Source: Candidatus Aenigmatarchaeota archaeon
GTDB lineage: Archaea; Aenigmatarchaeota; Aenigmatarchaeia; QMZP01; QMZT01
Assembly (NCBI GenBank): GCA_003663325.1
Contig: QMZT01000003.1
Span: 1 to 47,570, forward strand
Length of the DNA: 47,570 nt
Direction of reading: 5' to 3'
This document shows, in pieces, positions 20,405 to 41,506 of this stretch. Position 1 is the stretch's first letter, and every line of letters begins with the position of its first letter. The notes beneath the pieces are model-generated. The model worked only from the letters and a program-made list of their open reading frames with translations. It had not been told where the DNA came from and did no database searches. A program made the translations under genes and the position numbers.

Positions 20405-20758
20405 ATGGGTATAAGAGCTTTTGTGGCGATCTTCACACTATTCATTATCTTACTTAGCGGTTGTGTTACAACAGAGAAAACAGAGAATAAAGAGATTAGT
20501 GCGAGAGAGAAATGCATAGAGCTTTGTAAGGCAGAGCTTAAGAGGGGTAGTGATCTCTCTTCTGGCCCTTGCTTAAGTGATAATAATCCTGAGTGGGATG
20601 TAGACGGCTGGGTGTGTGATGTTGCACACTGGCCAAGAGAGGATGTGGATAATTTGAGAGAAAACCAATGTGATGGGTGGTGGGAAGCAAAAAATGCTGG
20701 CAAGGAAGTGCATTTCGTTGAGGTCACGCCTGAGTGTAAATTTATAAGGGCGATATGA
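20405..20758 (+). CDS. Small Cys-rich lipoprotein of unknown function
   Basis: Lipobox LLSGC; C...C, GPCL, WVCDVAH.PR, NQC, HFVEV..EC. Confidence 0.8.
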   Translation: MGIRAFVAIFTLFIILLSGCVTTEKTENKEISAREKCIELCKAELKRGSDLSSGPCLSDNNPEWDVDGWVCDVAHWPREDVDNLRENQCDGWWEAKNAGKEVHFVEVTPECKFIRAI

Positions 20759-21986: not shown

Positions 21987-22487
21987 ATGCAACTGTGTAA
22001 CATTTGGAAGAATAGCGAAGCAAGGGATATAGTTAAGGGCAGGCTTGTTTTGTGGAGAAAAGAGGGTACAGTTGTAAGAGTGGAGAAACCAACAAGGCTT
22101 GAGAGAGCAAGGAGGCTTGGGTATAAAGCGAAACATGGCTTTGTTGTTGTTAGGGTAAGGGTTAAGAAGGGGAAAAGGAAAAGGCCAAAGGTGAGTGGTG
22201 GAAGGGTTCCCAAAAAAGCTGGAAGGTTTTTCACGCTTGGAAAGAGCAAGCAGGTTGTTGCAGAGGAAAAGGCAGCGAGGAAATATCCTAACATGGAGGT
22301 ATTGAATTCGTACTATGTTGGAGAAGATGGTCAATATAAGTGGTACGAGGTTATAATGGTGGATCCTGCCCACCCAGAAATAAAGGCTGATAAGGATATT
22401 AATTGGATATGCAAGCCGGTGCATAAAGGAAGGGCATTTAGGGGTTTAACCTCGGCAGGAAAGAAGAGCAGAGGGTTGAGGGCTTAA
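21987..22487 (+). CDS. rpl15e: 50S ribosomal protein L15e
   Basis: [65 protein letters not shown]. Confidence 0.97.
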
Positions 22488-22494
22488 AATTAAA

Positions 22495-22779
22495 TCATTT
22501 CCTTTTTAGCTTTATCTTCTCTTCGTACTTATCGGGCACTATGTTAGCTCTTTGCAATTTTATAAGTATATAGCTTGTTATAACAGCTATTGCTGTAATG
22601 ATTATTGCCGAGATGTACTTCCATAACAAGCCCTCGCTTTTTGGGAGAAACAGCTCTATGGTCTCTTTTATCGCATCCCGCCATGAAAAGGCAACAAGGA
22701 AGCCAAGAGCTGAAAGCACCATCGTTATTATAATACCCTTTATGTTGAGTTTCTCAACCTCTTCCTCAAACTTTGCCAT
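22495..22779 (-). CDS. Small membrane protein (DUF5654-like)
   Basis: SALGFLVAFSWRDAI...YISAIIITAIAV two-helix pattern; ATG at 22779 chosen as likely start. Confidence 0.7.
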   Translation of the reverse strand: MAKFEEEVEKLNIKGIIITMVLSALGFLVAFSWRDAIKETIELFLPKSEGLLWKYISAIIITAIAVITSYILIKLQRANIVPDKYEEKIKLKRK

Positions 22780-22879
22780 AATAACACCAGATAAGAATTT
22801 GGTTGCGTAAAGATTTTTAAAGTTTTTGGTCATTTTATAAAATAATTACTTAAAAATAGTAAAATTAGGTGGTGAGGAT

Positions 22880-24610
22880 ATGGGAAAGGAAGGTTATTTG
22901 TTTGATTGGCTTGGCTGGGATGCGTTTCCGTATGTTGAAGCCTTACAAAAACAAAGATCAAACATAGGGAATGTAGATAAAGAAGATGAGAGATATGTGC
23001 TTGGAGGCGAAGCATTGCCTGCAGTGCTCATAAACCTTGCACCAGAAGGAAGGGATGCATTGGTATCACTTCTTTCTAGGCCAACAATTGATGAAATTAG
23101 AGAGGCAAGAGAAGAGGTTGGCAATGGCTTTGATCCTGACGAATTTGTAAAGCAAAGCTCCCCATTTTATGATCCTGAGGAAGATTACGAAAAGCCTGAT
23201 GCAGAAAACCTTAATTTTGGACCAAAAGGGAAGGTAAGCAGAAATAGCGGAATTATAGGAGGTTTTGCAGCTTTAATGTTGCCTTTTGTTCCTTTAGCTG
23301 GGCAAATAGATATGGGCAGTGCTGGTAAGGCAATATATAATAGCTTAATACCAAGCGCTAGTGCTGCAGAACCTGTTGCAGATAGTACTGCCAGTGCTAT
23401 AGATTCTACTACCGTGCAAGCGGGAAGAGGTATATATGAAAGCATGGAGGGAATGTGCGAAGAGATAGGTGCAATGAGCGATTCCCTAAATGCAATGATA
23501 GCAATAGCAGACACAACCTCTCTAAAGTTAGCGGAGCAATATGATGAGCAAATAGCAAAAATTGATAGCTCATTTTCAAGCCTCGCTAAAAATCTGAAAA
23601 GGTATTTACAAACAAAGGTTAGTGCCGATTCCACTGAGCTTAATTACCTTTTAAGAGTAGAGTGGAGATTAAAAAGATACAGCGATGAGCTAAAGAGAGC
23701 AAAAAATTGTGAGGAGTTAAGATATAAGTTTAATATTGATGAAAAATTAGAAGAGGTCAAGGATTTATTAAAGGAAATAGAAGCAAGAAAGAAAGAGCTT
23801 AAAAAAAGAATCAAAGAAAACAGAAAATTGTACAGAGATGGGGGAGTTGAGGCTCCAAGGATAGAACATTACGATCTTGGATTCGGTTTGTATGGGATTA
23901 ATTCTGAACTAGAAAGTGACAGGGTAACAAGAGTGGAAGAAAGAGGAAGCGTAGCGAGGGGTGAGGCTGTTTTATCTTCTCAACGTTCACCGCCTATACT
24001 ATTAGGTTTTGATCTGGAAACAGCAGAGACGGGGAGAGGTGAAACAAGTACAGGAGAATATGTAATAAGGAGTAAAGCTGAGGGTAATATAATTGTAGGG
24101 AATACAGCTCTGCGTTGGGGTGATGAGGGTGTAAGGTTTGGAGCTGGTATTAATTTATTATGGGACAGGGTGAGATTTGGATATGAGGCAAGAAATGGAA
24201 CCAAAATGGAGGATGTTAGGAAAAGAAGTGGAGCGAGCATAGAATTGCTTGCTGGTTACGTAAAGGATATAGATAAGCATAGAATAGGTGTTATAGGTGG
24301 TTTACAAACAAGCTTTTATAGGAGCGATGGGAGCAATGAAAAGGCTGTGACAATAAGACCATGCCTTTTTGTTTCAAGAAGGGAAAGCGGGATCTATGCT
24401 GTATCGATAATACCAGAACTTACTTATAGGGAAATGGTAAGGGGTGATATAGAAAGGTCTGGATGGGAATACGCACTCAGCGTAGAGGTTCCCTTTATAG
24501 TACCAGGAATGTATATACATGGTGAATGCTCTCAGTATTGTGGTGATTATTCCGGTAATAAATGGGAAAGATCAAGTTCTGGAAAACTCTATCTAGGAAT
24601 AAGAAAATAA
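22880..24610 (+). CDS. Hypothetical exported protein: acidic N-terminal region, internal signal-like segment, coiled coil, C-terminal predicted beta-barrel
   Basis: SD GGTGGTGAGG before the ATG; hydrophobic IIGGFAALMLPFVPLA and PSASA|AEP; heptad-rich helix; about 12 alternating amphipathic strands. The ORF is well supported; the fold is inferred. Confidence 0.7.
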   Translation: MGKEGYLFDWLGWDAFPYVEALQKQRSNIGNVDKEDERYVLGGEALPAVLINLAPEGRDALVSLLSRPTIDEIREAREEVGNGFDPDEFVKQSSPFYDPEEDYEKPDAENLNFGPKGKVSRNSGIIGGFAALMLPFVPLAGQIDMGSAGKAIYNSLIPSASAAEPVADSTASAIDSTTVQAGRGIYESMEGMCEEIGAMSDSLNAMIAIADTTSLKLAEQYDEQIAKIDSSFSSLAKNLKRYLQTKVSADSTELNYLLRVEWRLKRYSDELKRAKNCEELRYKFNIDEKLEEVKDLLKEIEARKKELKKRIKENRKLYRDGGVEAPRIEHYDLGFGLYGINSELESDRVTRVEERGSVARGEAVLSSQRSPPILLGFDLETAETGRGETSTGEYVIRSKAEGNIIVGNTALRWGDEGVRFGAGINLLWDRVRFGYEARNGTKMEDVRKRSGASIELLAGYVKDIDKHRIGVIGGLQTSFYRSDGSNEKAVTIRPCLFVSRRESGIYAVSIIPELTYREMVRGDIERSGWEYALSVEVPFIVPGMYIHGECSQYCGDYSGNKWERSSSGKLYLGIRK

Positions 24611-24611
24611 G

Positions 24612-27600
24612 GTGATAGAAATAAGATTGAAAGAATCGGTAATGGTTTTATGTATATTGTTTGCTATGTTTCCCTTAGTTTCAGCTTTAGATGTAGACAT
24701 AGCGCCAGCTAAGCCTCATACGAGCGATGATTTAAAATGCAATATAAATGGGTATGCAGAAGATTATCTCTTCAGATGGTATAGAAATGGAAAATACTAT
24801 ACAGAGGGATACGGCAAAGATGTTATAAGCCATGAGGAAACAAAAAAGGGTGATAAATGGGAATGTAGAGTTTATAGCTATCTTGGTTCTTTTGGGCTAA
24901 CGGAAGCGGGCAGGGCAAGCACAAGCATAGTAAATGCCGTGCCATCAATAAGCCTTTTAGAGCCAGAAAATAATGCAATTGTTGATGATGAGTGGGTTTC
25001 ATTTAGATGGCAAGGCTATGATGAAGATGATGATGAGCTAAGCTATACACTCTTTGTTGGCAATAGCTTAGAAACCATGCAAGAGGTAGTAGAAATAAAA
25101 AGCAAGAGCTATACAATGCATGTTGAAAGAGGAGAGCAATATTATTGGAAGGTTAGAGTGTGTGATGGGCAGGAGTGTAAAGAAAGTAGAGCATGGAGCT
25201 TTAGTGTTAAAGAAGAAGTAGAGCAATGCGAGCCTGAGCTTTATGTTACCACGAACCAAATAAACTTTGGAGAAATAGAAAAGGGTTTAACGGCAGAAAG
25301 GAGCTTTTATATTGGAAATAGGGGGTGTGGAAAGCTAAGTTATAATATAGAATATGATATAGATATAGTGGTTAGCCCATCTTTTGGTATTATTGATCGG
25401 GAACAAAGTGAAAAGATAATTGTTAGAATAGATACAAACAAACTAAACCCAGGGTATTATGAAGCATACCTAAGGATAAGCTCAAATGGTGGTGCAGCAA
25501 ATGTGAAACTCATAGCCATGGTAAAAGCCAAGCCAATTCCTCAAAAGGAGCATATGCCTAAGGCATTAAATGTTCACATTGAGCCTTTGCGCCCAAAAAC
25601 AACAGACAGGCTAACATGCGAATATGATTTTTATGATGAAGATGATGATGATGAAGGCAAAAGTGTGGTAAAATGGTATAAAAATGGTATTTTTTGGAAA
25701 GCAGGGAAGGTGCTGGATAGCTCATATACAAAAAAAGGAGATGTATGGAAATGTAGTGTTGAGCCTGTTGATTCAAAAGGCAACCATGGAACTATTTCCT
25801 ATTCTCCACCTATAACAATTGAGAACTCCCCACCCAAGTTAAAGAAAAATATAGAGGATCAAATAGGGAAAGAGAGCATGGCATTTGTTATTAATCTTAG
25901 AGATTATTTTTATGATCCAGATGTAGAAGATGGAGTAGAGACGCTTACTTATTATATCCCCCCTCTCTCCCATTTTCAATCTAAATTAATAGGAGATATT
26001 GTCACTTTTACACCTCATAGCAAGCATGGAATCGAGCACATTGTTATTGTAGCAAGCGATAGCCATGCAAGCGTATCATCGAATAGATTTAAGCTTGAAA
26101 TTACCCATGAGAACATACCACCTGTTGCAAGACTTTCTGCAAACAGATATGAAATAGAGGAGCATGAAGAGGTAGTTTTTGATGCAAGCCAGAGCTATGA
26201 TGATGACGGCTATATAGTTGCGTACAAATTTAATTTTGGTGACACCGCCACGGAATGGCTTTCCGCAAGCGTAATTAGGCACGCATATAATAGGGAAGGT
26301 ATATACTATGCCTATGTTGAGGTTAAGGATAATGACGGCAAGGTTTCGAGAAGCGAAAAGCTTATGATAAATGTGCTCAAAGCTGAGCCTGAGCCAGAAA
26401 CCGTTACAGAAAATCATATACCTGTGATACATTCTCTTTCACTTCAACCATCTACGCCAGCTCCAGATGATAACCTCGTATGTTATGCTGCAGTTAGCGA
26501 TGCCGATGGGAATTTGAATAATATAGAATTTAGCTGGCTCATTAATGGTAATACTGTTAAGACGGCAAATAAAATAATAGCAGGCAGCAATGCTGAGAGG
26601 AGTGATACACTTCTAATTGACGCTCATGCGGGGGATAAAATAACGTGCAAGGTCAAGGTAGTGGATAAAAAAGGCGCATACTCAATAAGGCACGTTGAGG
26701 TAACAGTAGCAGCCCGTACACAGCCATCCATACTTTCCATTTCAATCTCCCCCTCCCATCCATCACCTACCGACACGCTTACATGTTCTGCACTCATAGA
26801 AGATGAAGATGCTGACCTAAGCACAGCAAAATTTGAATGGTATAAAAATAACCAATTCATTGCAAAAAGGGAAAAGAGCATAGAGGGTGGGAGATTAAGT
26901 GTTTCAGATAGCATATATATCCCAAAAAGTGATAGGGATATCATAACGTGTGTTTTGACAGTATATGATTCATCAACGCTTTCCTCTTCAAAGAGCGCAA
27001 GCGTTAGTATAACACAGCTGGCATTGCCAACTTTAAACGAACCACCCGTCTTTGACAGCATATCTATATACCCTTCCATACCCTTAGCTAATAATGATAT
27101 AACCTGCACCGTAAGTGTAAGTGACAGGGATGGCAATCTCAACTATGTTGTCTTTTACTGGTATGTGGATAATATCTTAGTTAAGAGTATTACAAAAGGC
27201 ATTAATGGCTACTCTGCTATAACAAGCGATACACTGCGCTCGAGCTATATAGAAAAGGATAGTATAGTAAGGTGTATGGCAAAGGTATATGATGGTAAAA
27301 ATGCGTGGAGTAAGGCTGAGAAAAGTGTAACAGTAAGCATAGTTAGCACAGCTAAAACACCGCCAAGTATAGATATTCCAGATTACCATACAATGCCTGG
27401 AAAAAGTATAGTGATTGATCTATGGGAGTATGCAAGCGATGAGGAAGATAGCGACGCAATGTTGAAATTCTTTATCCTGAGCCAGTCAGATACATCCAGT
27501 GCTTATTGTGTTATAGAGCACATGCACTATATTAAGTGCTATGCAAAGAAAGATGGAAGTAGTGTGGTATCTGTGAGGGTTTTTGATAGCTCTGGTTTAT

Positions 27601-29012
27601 TTGCGGAGGACTCCTTTACCATTCATGTAGAATCTGCAAAGCCTGTGATCAACTCAATATCCCTGCTCCCAGAGCAACCAACGACAAATGATGATATAAT
27701 ATGCACAGTTATGGTAAGTGATGCTAACAGCGATCTTAATTACGTACTTTTCGAGTGGTATATAAATGGCATAAAGGTTAAGAGTGAGACGAAAAATGTT
27801 TATTCATACTCAGACACGGCAAAAAGTACTCTTCCACGCTCATATACAGCAAGCGGTGATACAGTGAGGTGCGTAGCAAGTGTTGTAGATATGCGCAACA
27901 ATATAGCCAGGTCTGAGAAATCAATTGCTATAATGCAGGAGATATCACTCGCGCCTGTAGCTATTATAAGTGCAAGCCATTACAGAGTAAAGCCTGCTGT
28001 GCCTGTTTATTTCTCGGGGGCAAATAGTTATGATAGGGATGGGTACATAACAAGCTACTATTTTGATTTTGGAGATGGGCATAGTAGTGGTTGGACCATG
28101 CATAGTGGTGTCTATCATTCCTATGCCAGACCAGGGGTTTATAACGTAAAGCTGAAGGTGATGGATAATACAGGAAAGATAAGCGCATGGTCTCAAGTAA
28201 CAATAGTTGTTGAAAGTGAAGATGTGTGCGGGGTTGAGATAACAAAGATAGAGCATCCAACAAGTGTTGTTAAAAATGCCTGGACCAAGGTGTGGGTTAA
28301 AAATACGGGAAGCGTGACAACAAAGATTGTATTGAGATTGTATATAGATGGGGTTATAAAGAGTACATACACAGCGATACTTTCTGCAGGAGAAGAGAGA
28401 CTAAATAAATTCGATTTTGTGTTAGATAATGGCACATATAACATAAAAATAGAAGCATTCGCCTATTGCAACAGCTATGACTATGAATGTTTCACAATAA
28501 GCTCCGTTCCTGAGCCTGGTGTAGAAAAGGTAAGCATGGCTCCCTCTGAACCACAGAAGGTTGCAGAATTTGTTAAAGTATACCCAGATTCTATCGATAT
28601 GGAGGTGCATACAGGAAGCGTTATTACAATAGAGCTGCAGAGCAGGGAGAAAGCGGTATATAATATAGAGGTTGAGGGTATGCCGAGAGATTGGCTTAGC
28701 TATCCCGATACCGTTGAGGTTGAAGGGAACAAAAAGGTTTACGTATATGTAACGCCTCATGAAATTGGGAGATATAGTCTTTTAGTAAGGGTATCAAGTA
28801 ATGAGACGAGTATAAGCAAACCCATTGGCGTGTATGCGGCCCCTTCCCTAGCCAGAAAGGTAAGCAAGGATGTTACTGGGTTGTTTTTGCAGAAAAATGC
28901 AATATATTTTGCAGGAGGCATAGTATTTATAGTCTTCATATCCCTTCTTTATTATCTAATAAAGGCGAGGAGGAAAAGTTATACCGAAGAGGTATATGGG
29001 AGTTATTACTAA
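24612..29012 (+). CDS. Large cell-surface protein with disulfide-type Ig repeats, two PKD domains and a C-terminal TM anchor (start may be TTG 24627 or ATG 24642)
   Basis: Signal peptide ..PLVSA; six P..P...D.L/I.C...W...C repeats; PKD motifs FDASQSYDDDG..YKFNFGD and FSGANSYDRDG..YYFDFGDG; C-terminal TM followed by KARRK. Confidence 0.85.
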   Translation: MIEIRLKESVMVLCILFAMFPLVSALDVDIAPAKPHTSDDLKCNINGYAEDYLFRWYRNGKYYTEGYGKDVISHEETKKGDKWECRVYSYLGSFGLTEAGRASTSIVNAVPSISLLEPENNAIVDDEWVSFRWQGYDEDDDELSYTLFVGNSLETMQEVVEIKSKSYTMHVERGEQYYWKVRVCDGQECKESRAWSFSVKEEVEQCEPELYVTTNQINFGEIEKGLTAERSFYIGNRGCGKLSYNIEYDIDIVVSPSFGIIDREQSEKIIVRIDTNKLNPGYYEAYLRISSNGGAANVKLIAMVKAKPIPQKEHMPKALNVHIEPLRPKTTDRLTCEYDFYDEDDDDEGKSVVKWYKNGIFWKAGKVLDSSYTKKGDVWKCSVEPVDSKGNHGTISYSPPITIENSPPKLKKNIEDQIGKESMAFVINLRDYFYDPDVEDGVETLTYYIPPLSHFQSKLIGDIVTFTPHSKHGIEHIVIVASDSHASVSSNRFKLEITHENIPPVARLSANRYEIEEHEEVVFDASQSYDDDGYIVAYKFNFGDTATEWLSASVIRHAYNREGIYYAYVEVKDNDGKVSRSEKLMINVLKAEPEPETVTENHIPVIHSLSLQPSTPAPDDNLVCYAAVSDADGNLNNIEFSWLINGNTVKTANKIIAGSNAERSDTLLIDAHAGDKITCKVKVVDKKGAYSIRHVEVTVAARTQPSILSISISPSHPSPTDTLTCSALIEDEDADLSTAKFEWYKNNQFIAKREKSIEGGRLSVSDSIYIPKSDRDIITCVLTVYDSSTLSSSKSASVSITQLALPTLNEPPVFDSISIYPSIPLANNDITCTVSVSDRDGNLNYVVFYWYVDNILVKSITKGINGYSAITSDTLRSSYIEKDSIVRCMAKVYDGKNAWSKAEKSVTVSIVSTAKTPPSIDIPDYHTMPGKSIVIDLWEYASDEEDSDAMLKFFILSQSDTSSAYCVIEHMHYIKCYAKKDGSSVVSVRVFDSSGLFAEDSFTIHVESAKPVINSISLLPEQPTTNDDIICTVMVSDANSDLNYVLFEWYINGIKVKSETKNVYSYSDTAKSTLPRSYTASGDTVRCVASVVDMRNNIARSEKSIAIMQEISLAPVAIISASHYRVKPAVPVYFSGANSYDRDGYITSYYFDFGDGHSSGWTMHSGVYHSYARPGVYNVKLKVMDNTGKISAWSQVTIVVESEDVCGVEITKIEHPTSVVKNAWTKVWVKNTGSVTTKIVLRLYIDGVIKSTYTAILSAGEERLNKFDFVLDNGTYNIKIEAFAYCNSYDYECFTISSVPEPGVEKVSMAPSEPQKVAEFVKVYPDSIDMEVHTGSVITIELQSREKAVYNIEVEGMPRDWLSYPDTVEVEGNKKVYVYVTPHEIGRYSLLVRVSSNETSISKPIGVYAAPSLARKVSKDVTGLFLQKNAIYFAGGIVFIVFISLLYYLIKARRKSYTEEVYGSYY

Positions 29013-29013
29013 A

Positions 29014-29061
29014 CAGAAAATATTTATAAATTTAACTACCAATAAATAAGTAAGTTTGGTG
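29014..29061 (+). promoter_or_regulatory. Putative archaeal promoter (BRE + TATA) and SD upstream of the second surface protein
   Basis: CAGAAAA followed by TATTTATAAA (29021-29030); TGGTGA SD just before ATG 29068. Confidence 0.55.
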
Positions 29062-29067
29062 AAAAAT

Positions 29068-31266
29068 ATGAAATATGCAATCATAGCAGCATGCATCGTT
29101 GTGTTAATATTAGCGCCTGGTGCTTTTGCATACTCAAATTTGGAAATGGTAATAACGCCGAGCTATGTTTCAGTATGCCCATGTAGTGCAGCCTCTAATA
29201 TAAATCTCATGCTCACAAATCTCGATGATGAAACAGATACGTACAAGCTAAGGTTAGGGCTTCCATCCGGCTGGTCTGGTTTCATAGAACCTGAGGTTAC
29301 ACTTGCCTCTGGTGAAAGCAGAAGTGTAAGCATTTATGTAACGCCTGATTGTGTCTCTGAGCCAGCTGTTTATATTGTAAAGGTCATTGCTACCTCTAGC
29401 CTAACAGGTGAGGTATTTTCAAAGGATCTTAAGGTAGAGGTTTTGAGATGCCATCATGTTAAATTGTATGTTGAACCTCAAATCTCTATGTGTAAGGGGG
29501 AAAGTATAGATTATGGCATAGATGTAAAGAATATGGGGAAGTTTGATGAGGAATTTAATGTCAATATAGCTACGCCATGGGGGCAACATATAACCCATAC
29601 CATTAAGCTCTTATCTCAACAAACGAAAAGGATCGTTGTAAAATTAACACCGCCAGCAGATAAAACAGGTGAGTACTATATAGAGGTTGATGCCAACTCT
29701 TTAACGAGCTATGCAAGCGATACGGCTGTAAGCGAGCTTACAATAGAAAACTGTTATGATTTTGACGCATACCTGAGCCCATTCTCCCAAGATGTGTGTT
29801 TAGGTAGGCTTGCAAGGTTTGATTTGGTAATAGTAAATAAAGGCACCAAGGACGATAACTATACTATTTCAATGCCGTCATGGGTTATCTCCGATAAGGA
29901 AAGTGTCTACCTAAAAGGTGGCAGGCAAGGGAATGTAAAAATATACGTAAAGCCAAGAGTAGCGTTTGAAAAGGAATTTGATATAACGATAGCATCTTCA
30001 AAAAAGCCGGGGTTAAGGTATGTAGTAAAGGGTAAGGTTAGCGCAAGGGATTGTAGGAAGGTTGCAGTAATAATAACACCTGCAGACTCAGAGGTATGTT
30101 ATGGGTTGGAGAAGGTATATGATGTTATTATAAAGAACACGGGAACCATAGAAGAGACCTACAATATTGTATCTACGCATGGTAAACTTTCACAGAGCAA
30201 GGTATTTCTCAATCCAGGTGAGACTAAAAAGGTAAAACTAACTGTTGGTGCTGAGGAAATGGAGCTTGGAAAGGTTATGGTAATTGTGGTAAAGGCGTTT
30301 GCAAAAGGCATAGCGGATGAAAACATAGCAACGCTTGCTGTTAAGAATTGTTATTCTGCTGAAATGAGCGTGGAGCCAGAGTATAAAAAAGCATGTAGAA
30401 AAGAGGTAATAAACTACTCTATTAACGTAAAGAATACAGGCAGATTTACAGATAGCTACACATTATACATGGATAATAAAGAGATTGCCAAATTCATACT
30501 CAGAAGTGGCGAGGAGACCGTATTTACAAAAAGCCTTTACCTCTTCCAGCCATATGCACAAACCAAAGAAATTACCTTTAAGCTTAATTCATCCTTTGTA
30601 GCTGTTGAAAAACATGTAAAGGTGGATATTAGACCAATAGAAGAATGTTATAGTGTTGAGATTAACATAGAGGGTAATGGGAAAAGGGTGAAGGTTATAG
30701 GTATGCCAACAGGTGCTGGTGTTGCAACGGGCTTTATAAAAGAAAGGGCGGCAAAGGTAAATGTTGATGTGTGTAAGACGGCTGTGTTAAACGTTAGGAT
30801 AAGGAACATAGGGGAAATGAGTGATGTGTATAACGTAGCGATTGAGGGGCCAGAATGGGTCTATATAAGCCAACAAAAATTCCTGTTGAAGAAGGGTGAA
30901 GCAAAGAATGCGTATATATACATCTCGCCACCATACAATGTAAAAGGAAGCTATGTAGCAAAGTTAATTGTTTCGTCGGAGAATATCAAAAAGGTTGTAG
31001 AAATTTTAATAAATGTAAATCAGTGGGATGCGTGTGTAATTGAAGGGAGAGAGGTTAATATAACCACGCCGGCGCAGCCAAAAGAGAATGTAACAAATAT
31101 AAGTGGCATAGAAGTGCCAACAAGGAACGTAACAGCTAATATAAGCAATGAGACGATAACAGGCGCTGTTCCCGTAAAGATAGGTTTGAAGAGTATACTG
31201 GCAGTAGTAATAATAATATCAATAGTTTGTATATTGGCTGCAAAGATTATAATGGTAGTGAAGTAG
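29068..31266 (+). CDS. Cell-surface protein with six Cys-bracketed Ig-like (COG1470/NEW3-like) repeats and C-terminal TM anchor
   Basis: Signal peptide ..PGAFA; repeated N.G...D/E.Y/F motif; N-glycosylation-rich stalk; C-terminal hydrophobic helix. Confidence 0.85.
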   Translation: MKYAIIAACIVVLILAPGAFAYSNLEMVITPSYVSVCPCSAASNINLMLTNLDDETDTYKLRLGLPSGWSGFIEPEVTLASGESRSVSIYVTPDCVSEPAVYIVKVIATSSLTGEVFSKDLKVEVLRCHHVKLYVEPQISMCKGESIDYGIDVKNMGKFDEEFNVNIATPWGQHITHTIKLLSQQTKRIVVKLTPPADKTGEYYIEVDANSLTSYASDTAVSELTIENCYDFDAYLSPFSQDVCLGRLARFDLVIVNKGTKDDNYTISMPSWVISDKESVYLKGGRQGNVKIYVKPRVAFEKEFDITIASSKKPGLRYVVKGKVSARDCRKVAVIITPADSEVCYGLEKVYDVIIKNTGTIEETYNIVSTHGKLSQSKVFLNPGETKKVKLTVGAEEMELGKVMVIVVKAFAKGIADENIATLAVKNCYSAEMSVEPEYKKACRKEVINYSINVKNTGRFTDSYTLYMDNKEIAKFILRSGEETVFTKSLYLFQPYAQTKEITFKLNSSFVAVEKHVKVDIRPIEECYSVEINIEGNGKRVKVIGMPTGAGVATGFIKERAAKVNVDVCKTAVLNVRIRNIGEMSDVYNVAIEGPEWVYISQQKFLLKKGEAKNAYIYISPPYNVKGSYVAKLIVSSENIKKVVEILINVNQWDACVIEGREVNITTPAQPKENVTNISGIEVPTRNVTANISNETITGAVPVKIGLKSILAVVIIISIVCILAAKIIMVVK

Positions 31267-31318
31267 TAATGGCCGTTGATTTTTAAAAAGCATAATAAAT
31301 CTATCTCTAAATTTTAAT

Positions 31319-32257
31319 ATGGTAAAAATAGCGTTTTTTGAGATTAGCGAGCAGGATAAAGCATTTTTTAGAAAAAATGTAAACGGTAGTATGGTGTTTT
31401 ATAAAGAGAGGCTAAGCCTAAAAAATATAGAAAAGGCACGGGGTTGTGAGGTTGTATGCATATCTATATATTCAAAAATCAATAAGGCTGTGATTGATAA
31501 GCTTCCGTCACTCAAATTCATAGCGACACGCTCTACTGGATACGATCATATAGATACAAGGGAATGTAGAAAGAGGGGCATAGCTGTTTCCAATGTTCCT
31601 GATTATAGCAACAATGCCGTAGCGGAGCATACATTTGCTTTAATTCTTGCGCTCTTTCGGAATATGAAAAGTGTTTTAAAGGGTGTGCAAGAAAGGTCCA
31701 AGCTTAGTGGTGCTGAGCTAAAAGGTAAAACGATTGGTGTAATTGGTACAGGTAAAATTGGGATGAATGTTATAAGGATAGCAAAGGGATTTGGAATGAA
31801 GGTTATAGCTTATGATATAAATAAAAATATTAAAGCATCTCATACTATTGGCTTTAAATATACTTCTTTGGATTATTTATTTAGGCATGCTGACATAATA
31901 ACATTGCATGTGCCTTATACAGAAAAGACACACCACCTCATAAACAAGGAAAATATAAATAATATCAAAAAAGGCAGTGTGATTATAAATACCTCAAGGG
32001 GCAGGGTTATCGAGACACAAGCATTGATTGAAGCTTTAGATAAAGGTATTTTGGCTGGCGCTGGCTTAGATGTGCTGGAGTATGAAGAAAAGCCAGAGGA
32101 GTGTAGAAGGAGATTTAAAAGGCTGTTTAGGATGGCTAACGTTATAGTTACGCCTCATATAGCTGCCTGTACAAGAGAGGCTATGAAAAGGCTTAGAGAA
32201 GTTACAGCAAAAAATATTAATGCATTTATTAGAGGCAAGGCGATAAATTTGGTTTAG
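31319..32257 (+). CDS. D-isomer-specific 2-hydroxyacid dehydrogenase (D-lactate dehydrogenase-like)
   Basis: TRSTGYDHID, NVPDYS..AVAEH, GVIGTGKIG, INTSRG, GLDVLE.E, TPHIA. Confidence 0.92.
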   Translation: MVKIAFFEISEQDKAFFRKNVNGSMVFYKERLSLKNIEKARGCEVVCISIYSKINKAVIDKLPSLKFIATRSTGYDHIDTRECRKRGIAVSNVPDYSNNAVAEHTFALILALFRNMKSVLKGVQERSKLSGAELKGKTIGVIGTGKIGMNVIRIAKGFGMKVIAYDINKNIKASHTIGFKYTSLDYLFRHADIITLHVPYTEKTHHLINKENINNIKKGSVIINTSRGRVIETQALIEALDKGILAGAGLDVLEYEEKPEECRRRFKRLFRMANVIVTPHIAACTREAMKRLREVTAKNINAFIRGKAINLV

Positions 32258-32270
32258 CCTGCATTAATTT

Positions 32271-32702
32271 CTATTTAATCTCACTTAAATCACCCTTGAG
32301 TACTATTGGCTGCATAGCTTTAATTTCATCTTTGTAGATCATATCGGGAATTTCGTTAAGCAAAAATATCTTTTTGTTTAGTATGTAGGCAAATCCCATC
32401 TCTAAAAAAACACTCCCACCAATATAATTCTTAATTCCCTTTTTATCGAAATTTAGGACAAGAATCGCATCTGACTTTTTGATCTTTCTAAAATGCTCTC
32501 TTATAGCGTCTTGCCTTATTGCCCTATTTGAAATCTCACCGGTTTCTTTTTCTCTCATTATTTGTTCAAATGCAAGCTTACCGTTTAATATCATCTCAGC
32601 AGTTTTAGGTATTAGTACTTCATGACCTTGCTTGATCAACCTCTTCCTTATATCTCCAATCTTATATGTGAAATCCAGGCTTGAACAGATTGTAATTCTC
32701 AT
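32271..32702 (-). CDS. Nucleoside 2-deoxyribosyltransferase-like (flavodoxin-like fold) hypothetical protein
   Basis: MRITICSS, IKKSDAILVLN...YIGGSVFLEMGFAY.LNK.IF; ATG 32702 avoids overlap with hypF. Confidence 0.65.
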   Translation of the reverse strand: MRITICSSLDFTYKIGDIRKRLIKQGHEVLIPKTAEMILNGKLAFEQIMREKETGEISNRAIRQDAIREHFRKIKKSDAILVLNFDKKGIKNYIGGSVFLEMGFAYILNKKIFLLNEIPDMIYKDEIKAMQPIVLKGDLSEIK

Positions 32703-32716
32703 ATTTTTTAAATGAG

Positions 32717-34942
32717 CTAAGGTCTTAAATATTTCACACATGCAAGCTGACCAAAGCTTATACCACCATCCCCACATGGCACGTGTTTATTTCTATATAC
32801 ATTCCCTAACTCCCTCTCCAGTGTTTTACTTATTATTTCATTGTAAGCAACACCACCACTAAAGCATACCTCCATGCCAAATCTTTTTGCTATCTTTGCA
32901 AGCCCCTTTCCTATTGCATAATGTACGGACAGCGCAATATCGCTTACAGGCTCATCTAAATGCTCCATAATACCCTTGAATATCTCTGTCGTACTTAGCA
33001 CATAACATCCGTTTATTTCCTTAACCTTAACAGGTAGCTCCAAATCCCTTTTCCCCTTTAAAGCTATACTTTCAAGCTTCATTGCAGGTTCTCCTTCATA
33101 GCTTCTCCTTTTACATATGCCAAGAAATGCTGAAACAGCATCCAAAAACCTTCCACAACTTGTAGTTTCTACTATGTTAAATTTATTTTCCAGTTGTCTT
33201 AACCACACACCAACATGGCTTTCCTCGCTTTCCTTAATCAGCTTTGCGATCTCTTCTTCATTCAAAAACTTGCTCATTATGGCAACACTAAGCCTTAGCG
33301 GTTCCTTTGTTGCGTAATCCCCGCCAATCATGGCTTGTGTTTCAAGCATGCCAACCCTTTCTAACCTGCCATTTTTGTATAAAAACACCTCCCCTCCCCA
33401 TGCTTTTCCATCACTTCCGTAGCCAAACCCATCGCACACAATGCCAACTCCCTTTTCTAGATTGTTTTCTTGCATGCAAGAAAAGAAATGGGCGATGTGG
33501 TGTTGCTGCCTCAAGAGAACGGCATTAAACCTTTTTGCAAGTTTTGATGCAAGGTTTGATGTGTTAAATCTTGGGTGCAAATCGCATACAACATACTTAA
33601 TACTCTTTATCTTTAGCATATCAAGGAACTTCATCACCTCTTTCTCAAGCCCATCCAGCGCATTGATACTTTCAATATCCCCATTGTATGAGGATATGTA
33701 AGCTTTACCAGCCTTATATATACAAAATGTATTTGAGTAGTCTGAGCCCATGCAGATTATCGCATGCTTTCCAGCATCTATTTTCAATGGGAGCGGAACG
33801 AATCCTCTTGCCCTTCTTATAAAACTAACCTTTCTATTAACTACTCTTATAACAGAGTCATCACATCTGTTAGCTATATCTCTATCATGTATTAAAAAGC
33901 AATCAACAATATCTTTAAGCTCGGTCAGAGCTTTTTTATCATCTATTATTGTTGGCTCTCCAGATAGGTTTGCAGATGTCATTATAACAGGCTCCTTTAT
34001 ATAATCAAAAAGAAGATAATGCATACCCGTGTATGGTAAAAAAACACCGACATTGTGCAGGCCGGGTGCAACAAATTTAGAAAGATTATAGTGCTCGGAT
34101 TTCCTTAAAAGAACTATTGGTCTTGCATAGCTTTCAAGCAAACCCTTTTCTTTTTTACTAATTACACAAAATCTCTTTGCCATTTCAACATCCCTTACCA
34201 TAACTGCAAATGGCTTATTGGCTCTCATTTTCCCCTTTCTCAATCTCTTAACTGCGCTATCTGAGGTTGCAAGACATGCAAGATGCCATCCACCTACACC
34301 TTTCATAGCAATTATTCCCCCTTTTTTAATAATTTTTGCTGCAATTTCGATGCAATTGCCTGCTATTTTATTATTTGTACAGATAAGCGCAAGCCTAGGC
34401 CCACATTCATAGCACGCTATGGTTTGTGCATGATAACGCCTATTCGCTATGGTGCTGTATTCTTCCTCGCATCTCCTGCACATCCCGAACTTGCCCATGG
34501 TTGTATTCTCCCTATCATAGGGTAGGTTTTTAATTATACTAAACCTTGGTCCACAATTGGTACATGTTATAAACCAATACCTATACCTCCTGTTCTCTCT
34601 GCTATAAAGCTCTTTTATGCATTCCTTGCATATAGCTATATCTGGCGGTATAGTTATGTCTGCATGGCCGTGCTCTGTACTCTTTTCTATCTTAAATCCC
34701 CTGCACTTTTTTGCTCTTGTTGCCTTTATTTGAATAGATTCTATGTGAAAGGGTTCTGGGAGAGCTTTAATATCACTTATGAAAGCCTTTAGCTCTTCTC
34801 CTTTTCCACATGCCAGAATCTCAATACCTTGCGGTGTATTCCTAACATACCCCTTTATATTATTTTTTACCGCTATCCTATGTATAGAAGGTCTTATACC
34901 CAGCCCCTGCACTATCCCTCTTATCAGAATAATCCTTTGCAT
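32717..34942 (-). CDS. hypF: [NiFe]-hydrogenase maturation carbamoyltransferase HypF
   Basis: Acylphosphatase domain GIVQGLGIRP; two Zn fingers (CKEC...CTNCGPRF, CRRC...CYECGP); YrdC-like KGVGGWHLAC; DLHP, QHHIAH, DGFGYG.DG, SGGV, GDGGISFGQ. Confidence 0.96.
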   Translation of the reverse strand: MQRIILIRGIVQGLGIRPSIHRIAVKNNIKGYVRNTPQGIEILACGKGEELKAFISDIKALPEPFHIESIQIKATRAKKCRGFKIEKSTEHGHADITIPPDIAICKECIKELYSRENRRYRYWFITCTNCGPRFSIIKNLPYDRENTTMGKFGMCRRCEEEYSTIANRRYHAQTIACYECGPRLALICTNNKIAGNCIEIAAKIIKKGGIIAMKGVGGWHLACLATSDSAVKRLRKGKMRANKPFAVMVRDVEMAKRFCVISKKEKGLLESYARPIVLLRKSEHYNLSKFVAPGLHNVGVFLPYTGMHYLLFDYIKEPVIMTSANLSGEPTIIDDKKALTELKDIVDCFLIHDRDIANRCDDSVIRVVNRKVSFIRRARGFVPLPLKIDAGKHAIICMGSDYSNTFCIYKAGKAYISSYNGDIESINALDGLEKEVMKFLDMLKIKSIKYVVCDLHPRFNTSNLASKLAKRFNAVLLRQQHHIAHFFSCMQENNLEKGVGIVCDGFGYGSDGKAWGGEVFLYKNGRLERVGMLETQAMIGGDYATKEPLRLSVAIMSKFLNEEEIAKLIKESEESHVGVWLRQLENKFNIVETTSCGRFLDAVSAFLGICKRRSYEGEPAMKLESIALKGKRDLELPVKVKEINGCYVLSTTEIFKGIMEHLDEPVSDIALSVHYAIGKGLAKIAKRFGMEVCFSGGVAYNEIISKTLERELGNVYRNKHVPCGDGGISFGQLACVKYLRP

Positions 34943-37894: not shown

Positions 37895-40800
37895 TTATAA
37901 ATAATTTTCTTTGCACTTCCCTGCTATATAAAGGTTGCCATTGCTATCTATATATGCAACAACCTCCCCCTCTCTATTTTCTATTATAAAGTTCCCTCTT
38001 CTTGCTTTTGCAGCGGCTAGAGCAGCTTTATTGATGTTTGTTTGGAGACTCCCGCTCAAGTATACATTCCCTGAGCTATCAACCAATGCAACACTCCTGC
38101 CCATTTCATCTTCTATAACGAAATCATTGCCATCGGCAGCAGGCATGATTGGTTGGTGTTCATTTACATTACCTTTTATGAACATATTCCCAATATTATC
38201 TATTATAAAGATAGTATCTCCGTTTTCATTCTCTATACCGAAATATGGTGGTTGTATCTCTATGGGGATTGATGGTGATTGTGTGGCATACGTTGCTAAG
38301 CTATAATCAAACTTTTCCACCATTCCAGAGCCGTGGAAGTAGATGGTTGCGTTGTTATCAAACTCCATTGCAACGAGCCTGCCTTCATAATTATATAGAT
38401 ATCTTGCAACCTTCCCGTTAGGCAGTACAACCTTCTTTAGCTTGCCAGCCTCATCATAAAAGTAGTACGTTACTCCCCCAGTACTTTTATCCTTCCTTCT
38501 TATCATATTTCCAGCCTTATCATATTCATAGATATATCTGGCATCTTCAGCGAGCCTGCTCGTTTCCCCCTTGCTCCCAGGCATGCTTACGCTCCCATCT
38601 GTGTTGTAATATCTGTATTCCTGTGTTTGCTCCCCGATCACATACCTTAATCTATTGCCTGTTTTATCGTATTCGTAACTTATATCCCCAATCCCAAGAT
38701 AGTACCCGTTGTTCTCTACCGATACCAGTCTATTGTACGGGTCATAGACGAGATTCATATCTTGTCCAGGTCCCACCGAAATCCTTTTCACATTCCCATT
38801 CTTATAGTACTCATAATATTCATTGAAAACCTTATTGCCAGAGGGATTAACACTTTCTACGGATTTTATCCAACCCCTTGGGTAGTATTCATAACTCGTT
38901 ACCACACCGTTCCCCATTGTAATCTTTTTGAACGCATTCGTTGGTGTATATTCAAAGGCTGCTATCGGCACAAAACGGATAAATACCGAATTAACCTGCA
39001 TCTTATCGTTTATTCCAAATTGTATGTACCTTCCGCTTGGATACCTAATAGCTATTATATTATCCCCAAAATCATAGAAATATTCCACATCAAATATGTT
39101 ATTTTCAAACTCCGTCATATTTACATAGTAAAGCTGTACATCATCAAGATAAAGCTCACCGCCACTAGCCCCTGTACCAATATACAATTCCATTTTTACA
39201 GCATTATCTGGAGCCTTAAATACATAATAGTATCTTTCATACCTTGCTGTGGTAGAGGTACTACCGGAATAGAAGCAGTTACCACCACAGCCATCACTCC
39301 AGCTATAGCCCAAGCTATCTATACTAACGCTGGCAGGCTGTATCAAGTTACCATCTTTATCATAAAACTTTAAGGCAATCCCTAAATCTGAATTGGCAGG
39401 GGATTTCGCATACGCTGATACAGCGTAGATTTCATTTCCATAAATTGGCAGTGTTTGCATAATGTATTCATAAGGTGAAGCATCAGTTATTTTGAGGGCT
39501 TTGTCTCCAGAATGAGCATCGCTGGTATAGCTTACACTACCGAAAGTTGTCCACATCCACCCCTCTTTCTCAAATCCACCATTGATCACAAAGCTTTTTC
39601 TAACAAGCTGTACCTCATCTATATACAACTCCTCATTGCCACCAGCATTTCCTATACCTATCCCAATCTCCACCGTTTTTGCTCCTGTTGGGGCCCTGAA
39701 GAAAAATAGATAGGGTTTGTAAATCTCCGCAGTCTTTATATTGCCAGAGTAAAAGCAGCCTCCACCACAACCAACACTCCAAACACTTTGGAACGCATCT
39801 ATTGCATTATCTGAAGGTGTTATTCTCCTTTCATTGCTATCATAAAATGTTAATGTAACACCAAGATTTGATGAGGTTGGTGACTTTGCGTATAAAGATA
39901 AAAGATAGACCTCATTCTCCTCAATGGGAAGCAGTTGATAGATGTATACATATTCCTCCCCCTCTTTTACAGAAATACTTACAGCCTTACCACCAGAGTG
40001 TGAATCTGTTACGATGCTTGCCTGAGTTGGCATATTCCATAACCACTTACCTCTTTCAAACCCACCATTCAATATGAGGTTTCTTCCTCTTATAGCACTT
40101 ATCTTCTTCTTTATCCTTCCCCTTATATCATACTCTATTCTCGTTGCCCCAGATTCATCGCGCACCTCACAAAGCCTGCCCTTGCCATTCTTACATTCCT
40201 CCCCATTTGCATACGTATCGTAGAAGTATGTAGTATCGAATGATCTCGGATAATCAATCTTTTTTATCCTGTTAGCTCTGTCATAGTAATACACCACCTT
40301 ATCTCCATTTGCATTTGTTATACTTTTCCTTAGATCATTCCTATAGTACTCATACTCTATTGTTCCAAGATCAGGATCACTAACGTTTTTTACCTTCCCA
40401 GATGGATCATAGCTGAGCTTGGTTACCCTCCCTTCCGCATCCCTGAATTCCTCTATCTGGCCAAGCACATTGTATTTGTATGTGGTTACCGCCTCAAACC
40501 TATTACCACCACAGCTCTGCCCAGGATCCACTATTTTACCAGCAAGCGAACAGCTATCAGGACATACGCAAGCCTCGCTTCCCTTATTTTCACCGCAAGT
40601 TGCGCATTGATCAGTAACAGGAAGAAAACCCGGTATTTCACGAAACATGACATATTTTTTCTTGCACCCAAGAGCTATGCAACCATCTATATCATAGCAT
40701 GTATCAATACAATCCTCAAGAAAACTTTTTATTCCATCCCCTGAGATTATGATTTTGCCTAGTATTTCGCTCTCAAAACATTTTTTACTACATTTTGCAG

Positions 40801-41506
40801 GAGCAGAGGCAACACAGAAAGGATCACATTTTTTAAATAGACTGCTATAATATGGATCACACTCATGCCTCCCACAGTAACAGGGTTCGGTTTCACAGTC
40901 CTCATAATAGCAAGAATAACGGCAAATATCATACATACAGTTATCAAAACAATTCTTCGCATCTGATCCAAAACTCTTTCTTTCATGCAAAATATTAGAT
41001 TTACTGTAAAGAGTAGTTGTTTTAACATTCTTTATCCTTATTCTTGGATATCTTGGATACTCTCCACAAATATATGAAAATGTCATATTTGTGGGTTCTA
41101 CTTGCAATAAAGAGAGGTATTCATAAGGTTTTAATTCACCCTCACCGGTGAATCCACCGATACTATAGTTACACAACAACTTGAACATTACATTCTTTAT
41201 AACTGTCGATATTTTACCACATCCAATAGAATCGCATTGAATATCTGAGCTTAGGCAATCCTCAGGACAATTTTGTGTATTTTCATCTTTATCTTCTTCG
41301 CACAAACCATTTCCACAATGGTGAAGACATTCACAATTTACTCCAGACTTATGTACCTCGTACCCTTCTGGGCAGGTATAATCTGGGTATGAGCCTTCAC
41401 ATTTCAACACCTCTGGATATTCTGCTGTCTCGGCAGAAAGAGCCGAGTATGAAAACAACACCAAAAATACTATTACTATTCCCATCGTTAGCTTTATTCT
41501 TTCCAT
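37895..41506 (-). CDS. Secreted RHS/YD-repeat protein (C-terminal half of the shell) with Cys-rich N-terminus, two CBM4/9-like inserts and a triple-repeat tail
   Basis: Signal peptide; DPDLGTIEYEY, YDRANRI, GRLCEVRDESG, YDKTGNR, YDKAGNM, YDEAGKL YD repeats; two NGGFE...DxVQL modules. Confidence 0.88.
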   Translation of the reverse strand: MERIKLTMGIVIVFLVLFSYSALSAETAEYPEVLKCEGSYPDYTCPEGYEVHKSGVNCECLHHCGNGLCEEDKDENTQNCPEDCLSSDIQCDSIGCGKISTVIKNVMFKLLCNYSIGGFTGEGELKPYEYLSLLQVEPTNMTFSYICGEYPRYPRIRIKNVKTTTLYSKSNILHERKSFGSDAKNCFDNCMYDICRYSCYYEDCETEPCYCGRHECDPYYSSLFKKCDPFCVASAPAKCSKKCFESEILGKIIISGDGIKSFLEDCIDTCYDIDGCIALGCKKKYVMFREIPGFLPVTDQCATCGENKGSEACVCPDSCSLAGKIVDPGQSCGGNRFEAVTTYKYNVLGQIEEFRDAEGRVTKLSYDPSGKVKNVSDPDLGTIEYEYYRNDLRKSITNANGDKVVYYYDRANRIKKIDYPRSFDTTYFYDTYANGEECKNGKGRLCEVRDESGATRIEYDIRGRIKKKISAIRGRNLILNGGFERGKWLWNMPTQASIVTDSHSGGKAVSISVKEGEEYVYIYQLLPIEENEVYLLSLYAKSPTSSNLGVTLTFYDSNERRITPSDNAIDAFQSVWSVGCGGGCFYSGNIKTAEIYKPYLFFFRAPTGAKTVEIGIGIGNAGGNEELYIDEVQLVRKSFVINGGFEKEGWMWTTFGSVSYTSDAHSGDKALKITDASPYEYIMQTLPIYGNEIYAVSAYAKSPANSDLGIALKFYDKDGNLIQPASVSIDSLGYSWSDGCGGNCFYSGSTSTTARYERYYYVFKAPDNAVKMELYIGTGASGGELYLDDVQLYYVNMTEFENNIFDVEYFYDFGDNIIAIRYPSGRYIQFGINDKMQVNSVFIRFVPIAAFEYTPTNAFKKITMGNGVVTSYEYYPRGWIKSVESVNPSGNKVFNEYYEYYKNGNVKRISVGPGQDMNLVYDPYNRLVSVENNGYYLGIGDISYEYDKTGNRLRYVIGEQTQEYRYYNTDGSVSMPGSKGETSRLAEDARYIYEYDKAGNMIRRKDKSTGGVTYYFYDEAGKLKKVVLPNGKVARYLYNYEGRLVAMEFDNNATIYFHGSGMVEKFDYSLATYATQSPSIPIEIQPPYFGIENENGDTIFIIDNIGNMFIKGNVNEHQPIMPAADGNDFVIEDEMGRSVALVDSSGNVYLSGSLQTNINKAALAAAKARRGNFIIENREGEVVAYIDSNGNLYIAGKCKENYL
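37898..38251 (-). repeat. Three ~40-aa protein repeats at the C-terminus of the RHS gene
   Basis: FGIENENGDTIFIIDNIGNMFIKG / FVIEDEMGRSVALVDSSGNVYLSG / FIIENREGEVVAYIDSNGNLYIAG. Confidence 0.85.
39125..40085 (-). repeat. Tandem duplication of a ~155-aa carbohydrate-binding-like module inside the RHS gene
   Basis: Both copies share NGGFE..W.W, DxHSGxKA, YIxQxLPIxxNExY, YAKSP..S.LG..L.FYD, CGGxCFYSG, FxAP..A, ELY.DxVQL. Confidence 0.85.

Follow-up and report, generated by a model that had tools for sequence, protein, structure and literature searches.

P0001 of an Aenigmatarchaeota archaeon: an anchored stalk protein with a candidate outer-membrane-type β-barrel

Transmembrane β-barrels of the outer-membrane protein (OMP) type count as a distinguishing mark of diderm bacteria and of the organelles descended from them, and they depend on Omp85 insertases. 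Could an archaeon with a small genome encode one as well? The question is raised by P0001, a protein encoded on contig QMZT01000003.1 of a Candidatus Aenigmatarchaeota archaeon (assembly GCA_003663325.1), of which the analysed stretch of 47,570 nucleotides is here called the window. The initial annotation had described an acidic N-domain, a hydrophobic segment, a coiled coil and a β-rich C-terminus, and all of these were found in this order (Table 1). P0001 is tentatively read here as a lineage-specific trans-envelope stalk of a small-genome (DPANN-like) archaeon that carries an OMP-type barrel for a second membrane, with a chance of being right that we place just under even. This reading is preferred because of the fold and the outer-membrane-barrel features assigned to the domain in the ESM Atlas, the count of strands by a strict rule, the strand map, the likeness of a relative termed P0002, the focus of strain variation on a loop and the precedent of the bacterial proteins OmpM and SlpA. 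The observation is real and the architecture unusual; P0001 is a candidate and not an established archaeal OMP.

Evidence for and against a C-terminal barrel

The ESM Atlas contains the exact sequence of P0001 with a model of its own. Residues 327-576 of this model matched PF03797 autotransporter β-domains of six cluster types with template modelling (TM) scores by query of 0.74-0.76 and 224-237 of the 250 residues aligned, which is good enough for a name by the Atlas's own criterion. A query with the full-length protein gave these PF03797 families as well, with TM-scores of 0.35-0.38. All named clusters listed as nearest by features to residues 327-576 were bacterial outer-membrane barrels, namely DUF6850, NfrA_C, Phage_OMP, Tsx, OmpG, BcsS and CymA (0.91-0.93).

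Strands were counted with a strict rule, by which a 9-mer must bear no polar or charged residue on one of its faces and contain three or more strong hydrophobics, and non-overlapping segments are summed. Residues 327-576 contained 7 such segments compared with 3.9 ± 1.5 in shuffled sequences, 44 of 1000 of which reached 7. The autotransporter barrels of E. coli gave 5-7 segments and were no better than P0001, and the PKD/Ig neighbours from the same genome averaged 2.5 per 250 aa, with at most 4-5. A naive Kyte-Doolittle dyad count failed to tell E. coli OMPs from background, whichever of five thresholds was applied, and was dropped. By hand, 13 alternating segments were drawn, with charged residues at 2 of 68 positions on the hydrophobic faces, 19 of 70 on the other faces and 48 of 112 in the connectors; as the segments were selected by eye, this map is a description and not a test. 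From strand S2 on, short turns (2, 2, 5, 4 and 2 aa) alternate with longer loops (11, 3, 14, 8, 11 and 15 aa), as in OMPs.

A phmmer search of 1.84 billion representatives yielded one relative of P0001, the 511-aa P0002 (E 1.6e-5). The match lies between residues 72-130 of P0001 and 8-66 of P0002 (library E 1.6e-5, pairwise E 1e-11), and the identity of the two proteins is about 23-25%. They have in common the N-terminal motif, a Gly-rich hydrophobic segment, which is weaker in P0002 (19-residue Kyte-Doolittle mean 1.36), and a helix in front of the candidate barrel. Where P0002 aligns with residues 454-539 of P0001, the strand phases are conserved. Both proteins contain the motifs SI[IV]PEL and C...CG...W.R, including a conserved Cys pair. 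P0002 ends in ...GVKFKW and in this resembles the C-terminal β-signal of OMPs, which ends in an aromatic residue.

Two classifiers, a composition model and a dyad model, were trained on 35 barrel domains of E. coli K-12 (autotransporters, small OMPs, porins, TonB-dependent receptors and ushers) against 322 background open reading frames (ORFs), and both reached an area under the curve of 0.98-1.00 when one family at a time was left out. The C-terminus of P0002 was OMP-like on the composition model with +3.3 to +4.4, where the held-out E. coli negatives of five folds had 95th percentiles of -4.6 to -1.0 and 99th percentiles of 0.0 to 3.9. On the dyad model it scored 37.6 compared with a 99th percentile of 31.7 for the E. 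coli negatives. Both classifiers ranked this archaeon's giant secreted β-rich proteins highest, among them RHS and LamG/concanavalin-type proteins, so that in this genome a high score does not single out membrane barrels. The top ORFs of the dyad model were C5:121-9321 (+, 3067 aa), C1:19389-27560 (+, 2724 aa) and C14:11488-15432 (+, 1315 aa), all probably secreted β-rich proteins; those on C5 and C1 were also among the top six of the composition model.

Related strains were detected in two metagenome runs labelled as hydrothermal vent, from two other studies, which contained 25-30% of the words sampled from the region. Small low-depth contigs cover parts of P0001, and one of them reaches the downstream gene. 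These data are single contigs with a depth of 4-5 and include another 63 differences and 2 indels beyond those listed; parts of P0001 left uncovered in runs X3-X6 carry no meaning. Among the 13 listed substitutions in P0001, the 4 outside codons 436-453 all fall on codon position 3 (2 synonymous, 2 Ile/Met exchanges). The other 9 listed lie in codons 441-453, within the variable loop of Table 1, which the strand map predicts to be a long one, and 7 of them are non-synonymous; this loop also shows a net deletion of 12 nt. An in-frame insertion of 12 nt at 22936/22937 (codon 19/20) duplicates the EALQ of codons 20-23 (one X4 contig, depth 4.3), and a deletion of 1 nt listed for an X5 contig of depth 2 may be an error. 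This variation agrees with a translated, constrained gene whose product exposes a single variable loop.

Several results weigh against a barrel in a second membrane. AlphaFold2 (AF2), proposed in the initial annotation as a check, was run twice with two-sequence alignments and gave a mean predicted local distance difference test (pLDDT) of 33.5 for the full length and 30.4 for residues 286-576; helices were modelled for the stalk, but the β region (pLDDT 19-34) obtained no confident fold. The Atlas model is itself of modest confidence (predicted TM-score 0.41, mean pLDDT 0.56). Its comparison has predictions on both sides, a feature match of at least 0.9 is obtained for 4-10% of shuffled proteins, and a third of shuffled proteins show ten matches in one clan. 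Concerning the strand pattern, 34 of the 558 ORFs in the same genome also reach a count of 7, and the period-2 hydrophobic power of residues 327-576 was not significant (z 1.1-1.35; 60/500 and 45/500 shuffles). The pattern exceeds chance only marginally; the approximately 12 amphipathic strands originally proposed are recovered as 13 segments by eye and 7 by the strict rule, with this statistical reservation. The domain contains 69 charged residues in 250 (27.6%) and 3 Cys, and it ends in ...LYLGIRK with a Lys where the β-signal has an aromatic residue. It was classified as non-OMP by the composition model (-2.7 to -6.7), and its dyad score of 14.8 ranked 70th of 558 own-genome ORFs, below the 95th percentile of the E. 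coli negatives (18.7).

Database searches gave no support either. P0001 had no match in Pfam (whole protein at E<=0.1, residues 327-576 at E<=10), NCBIfam, PHROGs or the PDB, and the family of two members allows no covariation analysis. In the genome, hidden Markov models (HMMs) of Omp85 (PF01103), POTRA (PF07244), PF03797 and OMP_b-brl (PF13505) found 0 matches at E<=1, while bacterial controls were found; as the genome is 82% complete, these families count as not found rather than proven absent. The statement that most archaea have no BamA, which had been made at the outset, agrees with this search. We know of no evidence for a second membrane in this lineage. An alignment of the C-terminus with E. 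coli autotransporter, porin and small-OMP alignments by hhalign stayed below 2% probability, but known OMP families score below 1% among each other, so that this comparison has no power. Altogether, the OMP-type barrel is a candidate modelled by one predictor family: the Atlas fold and its outer-membrane-barrel neighbours speak for the original claim, AF2 is unusable, and the E. coli-trained classifiers point away from it.

Further relatives were sought without success. Word-indexed homologue searches with P0001, the two-member alignment and P0002 returned the query itself only, and no relatives of the family were found in genome and metagenome contig collections, or of P0002 in viral contigs. 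A viral contig match to P0001 (L003) was discarded since it comprised only 38 residues of low-complexity coiled coil. Sequence searches with P0002 in Pfam, NCBIfam, PHROGs and the PDB gave no match. Neither 60 closer relatives nor 371 genomes of the phylum contained a relative of P0001, and the sequence clusters of P0001 and P0002 have one member each. The search for homologues, which had been suggested as a check, gave the distant P0002 only, and P0001 appears to be nearly an orphan and lineage-specific.

Anchor, stalk and comparison with known systems

The acidic character of the N-terminal leader was confirmed, with 26 Asp/Glu compared with 11 Lys/Arg in residues 1-115. P0001 contains only one strongly hydrophobic 19-mer (residues 125-143, Kyte-Doolittle mean 1.79). 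By the positive-inside rule and the distance rule for signal peptidase, the segment around it is best taken as an uncleaved N-in signal anchor and not as a signal peptide. A cleavable signal peptide with an ASA|AEP site, as read in the initial annotation, was rejected, because about 20 residues separate this site from the end of the hydrophobic core, more than cleavage by signal peptidase allows. With an uncleaved anchor, P0001 would be tethered to the cytoplasmic membrane with its N-domain in the cytoplasm and about 430 residues outside, and would not be an autotransporter.

The long charged coiled coil in front of the β region was borne out by a heptad (3.5-residue) hydrophobic periodicity of residues 176-320 with z = 5.3, which was reached by 0 of 500 shuffles. 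Both AF2 runs placed four helices here, at 176-210, 215-244, 250-274 and 286-319 (pLDDT 44-77). A prediction of a three-copy complex of residues 176-330 scored 0.20 and 0.15 compared with a mark of 0.32; it was run without controls and bears neither way on oligomerisation of the stalk.

In the preferred arrangement, Sec would export the approximately 430 residues behind the uncleaved anchor and the conserved acidic domain would stay in the cytoplasm. The coiled coil would form a stalk, either stretched out over as much as about 20 nm or collapsed back on itself into a bundle. Roughly the final 250 residues would close into a meander barrel of about 12 strands of the bacterial outer-membrane/autotransporter type, whose short turns would lie on the side toward the cell and whose long loops, which vary between strains and carry Cys, would point away from it. 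An apolar outer face would keep such a barrel from being soluble; it would have to lie in another lipid layer, which could belong to the archaeon as an outer membrane or to a partner cell. P0001 would then tie two membranes together and perhaps also act as a small pore, in the manner of OmpM and SlpA, with a transmembrane helix in place of SLH domains and inserted without BamA. That it forms a pore, and which membrane it would enter, are suggestions drawn from this arrangement.

The closest working analogy for P0001 is OmpM of diderm Firmicutes and SlpA of Deinococcus, in which an anchor, a coiled coil and a C-terminal outer-membrane barrel form a functioning tether (PMC10628300, PMC9388160). 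The order of parts agrees with that of P0001, where an envelope anchor and a coiled-coil stalk precede a β-barrel that is predicted. The OmpM stalk is reported as possibly either compact or extended (PMC10628300), and the segmentation of the P0001 stalk into four helices may parallel this. The differences are considerable. P0001 has no SLH domain (Pfam search), and its predicted anchor is a transmembrane helix in the cytoplasmic membrane together with a cytoplasmic acidic domain. About 12 strands are predicted for its barrel compared with 30 strands in SlpA, while OmpM is a trimeric porin. No sequence similarity was detected, and the host is an archaeon without detectable BamA.

Type Va autotransporters (PF03797) share with P0001 a helix followed by a C-terminal domain of about 250 aa and the Atlas TM-scores given above. 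However, a search of the whole genome with the PF03797 HMM at E<=1 had 0 matches, while the control was found in E. coli and Caulobacter above the cut-off. P0001 also differs in having no N-terminal cleavable signal peptide, no β-helical passenger and no Omp85 that could be found, and further in the coiled coil between hydrophobic segment and β domain and in the Lys at its end. With an N-terminus that would be fixed in the cytoplasmic membrane, export of a passenger through the barrel would be impossible. Of the autotransporter/porin-like layout first proposed, the helix followed by a barrel-like domain is suggested by the Atlas model, with no barrel from AF2, and HMM match, signal peptide, passenger and BamA all fail. 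With these four defining features failing, P0001 is not an autotransporter.

The literature searches found no description of a stalked OMP-type barrel in DPANN. The nearest is a remark in PMC12228718 on a possible outer-membrane β-barrel relative of the PopA superfamily in Candidatus Altiarchaeales, an archaeon grouped with DPANN. It is among the few printed suggestions of a bacterial-type outer-membrane barrel in an archaeon, as P0001 would be, but it belongs to a different family and is a porin-like, lipid-trapping oligomer.

If genuine, an archaeal OMP barrel would raise the question of how a barrel folds without BamA, and whether another lipid layer, or the insertion of such proteins into the membranes of partners, occurs in some archaea with small genomes. 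Contacts of DPANN archaea with their hosts have been imaged by cryo-electron tomography, with nanotubes and a barrel-shaped docking complex but, in the available part of that report, no protein assigned to either (PMC11329633). The molecules of this contact are largely unidentified, and P0001 is a concrete candidate. A more far-reaching version would combine these points: a BAM-free bacterial-type barrel on a stalk rooted in the cytoplasmic membrane with a cytoplasmic domain, inserted either in an outer membrane so far overlooked in this lineage or in that of a partner cell, serving as tether and perhaps conduit of symbiotic contact, and showing that Archaea had evolved or recruited the OMP fold independently. 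This version we consider rather unlikely.

Alternative explanations

The principal alternative is that P0001 is a stalked adhesin or S-layer anchor, in which the transmembrane anchor and an oligomeric coiled-coil stalk carry a soluble β head (sandwich or jelly-roll) that binds the PKD/Ig neighbours, the S-layer or the surface of a partner cell. It has a real, if minority, chance of being correct. The SlaB-type S-layer stalks of Sulfolobales and the SUN-domain proteins of the LINC complex likewise bridge a defined envelope gap with one membrane anchor, a long coiled coil and a distal β-rich domain. Their distal domains are soluble β-sandwiches that bind protein partners and not lipid; the polarity of SlaB is opposite to that of P0001, with N-terminal β domains and a C-terminal transmembrane anchor. 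A soluble head needs no second membrane and would follow a design shared by archaeal SlaB-type stalks, SUN-domain proteins and fibre-knob adhesins. It would agree with the failure to find OMP-biogenesis families in the genome, with the operon-like run that P0001 forms with two anchored PKD/Ig surface proteins, and with AF2, which yields no barrel. The high share of charged residues and the conserved Cys pair are typical of extracellular soluble domains, and the E. coli-trained models rate the P0001 C-terminus as non-OMP, although in this genome they also favour secreted β-rich proteins. Archaea mostly possess one membrane with a protein lattice, and double membranes are exceptions in a few of them (PMC4243693). 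What speaks for the membrane barrel instead is that the Atlas model of residues 327-576 appears, from its match to autotransporter β-domains, to be a closed barrel, with no soluble β family among its named feature neighbours. Moreover, 12-13 consecutive strands of 8-14 residues with one nearly uncharged face and the alternation of turns and loops would be unusual for a sandwich, and the strict-rule count exceeds that of Ig/PKD domains of the same genome. P0002, which is OMP-like on both classifiers and has an aromatic last residue, also points away from a soluble head. If the head is soluble, P0001 is one more lineage-specific stalked adhesin, ordinary for such genomes.

It is improbable, but conceivable, that P0001 is an orphan surface protein in rapid evolution, with a C-terminus that lacks any stable and conserved fold, so that the barrel would be an over-reading of an alternating Gly/aromatic-rich composition by a language model. 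The single distant relative among 1.84 billion representatives, the empty searches in the phylum and among closer relatives, the other genes at the L15e locus of 17 family relatives, the low confidence of both predictors and the marginal pattern statistics all suit such an orphan. On the other hand, the domain order, strand phases and the two motifs kept in P0002 at so low an identity argue for a conserved fold, and the frame is kept in related strains with third-position changes and in-frame indels. A bacterial origin, by recent transfer of an autotransporter or OMP gene or by contamination of the contig, is very improbable. The structural neighbours in the Atlas, all bacterial autotransporters, are what could suggest it; there is, however, no bacterial sequence relative at E<=0.001 among the 1.84 billion representatives and no PF03797 match, the protein has neither N-terminal signal peptide nor passenger domain, and its gene stands between archaeal L15e/TFIIB genes and archaeal-style surface proteins at uniform GC content (0.37-0.41).

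The locus and its neighbours

The ORF of P0001 is a real gene in an archaeal context, as first annotated. Its contig is contig C3 of a 735-kb genome in 28 contigs with an estimated completeness of 82%. Genes for TFIIB, ribosomal protein L15e and class-I aminoacyl-tRNA synthetases of the Glu/Gln and Val/Ile/Leu types flank it, and the GC content is uniform along the window (0.35-0.41). The reading of TTTATAAAA and GGTGGTGAGG as promoter and Shine-Dalgarno site is our suggestion from the archaeal consensus. A scan of 22400-32400 gave 33 promoter-like sites compared with 32.1 expected and 4 terminator-like sites compared with 6.4, which is the level of shuffles; it used a sigma-70 model that is ill-suited to archaea. 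In sequence terms the gene is expressed-looking, judging by the Shine-Dalgarno-like site and the third-position bias of substitutions between strains.

Table 1. Features of P0001 and its surroundings in the window (positions from its first nucleotide).
Feature	Position	Strand	Basis or remark
P0001, gene in question	22880..24610	+	ORF, 576 aa
A/T-rich, TATA-like TTTATAAAA	22834-22842		within 46-nt divergent intergenic region; read from sequence
Shine-Dalgarno-like GGTGGTGAGG	22868..22877	+	just 5' of ATG; read from sequence
Acidic N-terminal domain, aa 1-115	22880..23224	+	net charge -15; predicted cytoplasmic
Best-conserved family motif, aa 72-130	23093-23269	+	in acidic domain; matches P0002 residues 8-66
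Single hydrophobic segment, aa 123-143	23246..23308	+	K/K/R on N-terminal flank
Ser/Ala/Thr-rich linker, aa 144-175	23309..23404	+	sequence; AF2 confidence low
Charged coiled-coil/helical stalk, aa 176-320	23405..23839	+	heptad periodicity; AF2 helices
β-rich C-terminal domain, aa 327-576	23858..24607	+	candidate 12-stranded OMP/autotransporter-like barrel; Atlas model, strand map, rule test
Strain-variable loop, codons 436-453	24185..24237	+	between mapped strands S6 and S7; one X4 contig, depth 5.1; differences listed in part
Downstream PKD/Ig-repeat surface protein	24612..29012	+	1466 aa; signal-peptide-like N-terminus, C-terminal transmembrane anchor
Second downstream surface protein	29056..31266	+	736 aa; Ig-like/NPCBM-associated domains, N-terminal signal-like segment, C-terminal transmembrane anchor

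P0001 is, as had been proposed, the first gene of a run of surface proteins, being followed by two giant PKD/Ig proteins with a signal-like N-terminus and a C-terminal transmembrane anchor each. The 1466-aa gene starts 1 nt (GTG) or 31 nt (ATG 24642) past the stop codon of P0001, and the junction of the two genes is bridged by a contig of a related strain (run X4, 24540-24811). In the 17 family relatives whose L15e neighbourhoods were fetched, the genes 3' of L15e differed from those of the window in all 17, and an anchor-coil-β layout downstream of L15e was found in 0 of 17. The surface-protein cluster therefore seems specific to the P0001 lineage. Most of these 17 relatives have a conserved order downstream of L15e, with ORFs of about 227 aa (starting with MRIVFDIGGS), about 103 aa and about 565 aa and a lipoprotein-like one of about 272 aa. 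As the genome of P0001 does not have this order there, the surface-protein cluster appears to occupy a rearranged or accessory site.

The divergent neighbour of P0001 at 22495-22833 (-) encodes a small DUF5654 membrane protein and shares the 46-nt A/T-rich intergenic region with it. Upstream, at 20405-20758 (+), lies an ORF of 117 aa that has no Pfam match; its hydrophobic N-terminus is followed by a lipobox-like LLSGC, and it contains several Cys and Trp. Two adjacent giant ORFs at 37895-47499 (-) probably encode further surface or contact proteins; one of 1203 aa has RHS repeats and CBM_4_9, and the other, of at least 2001 aa and reaching the window edge, has Laminin_G_3, DUF2341 and sialidase-like segments. 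Finally, a complete HypF-type carbamoyltransferase with acylphosphatase, zf-HYPF, Sua5/YrdC and Kae1-like domains is encoded at 32717-34942 (-) in this 735-kb genome.

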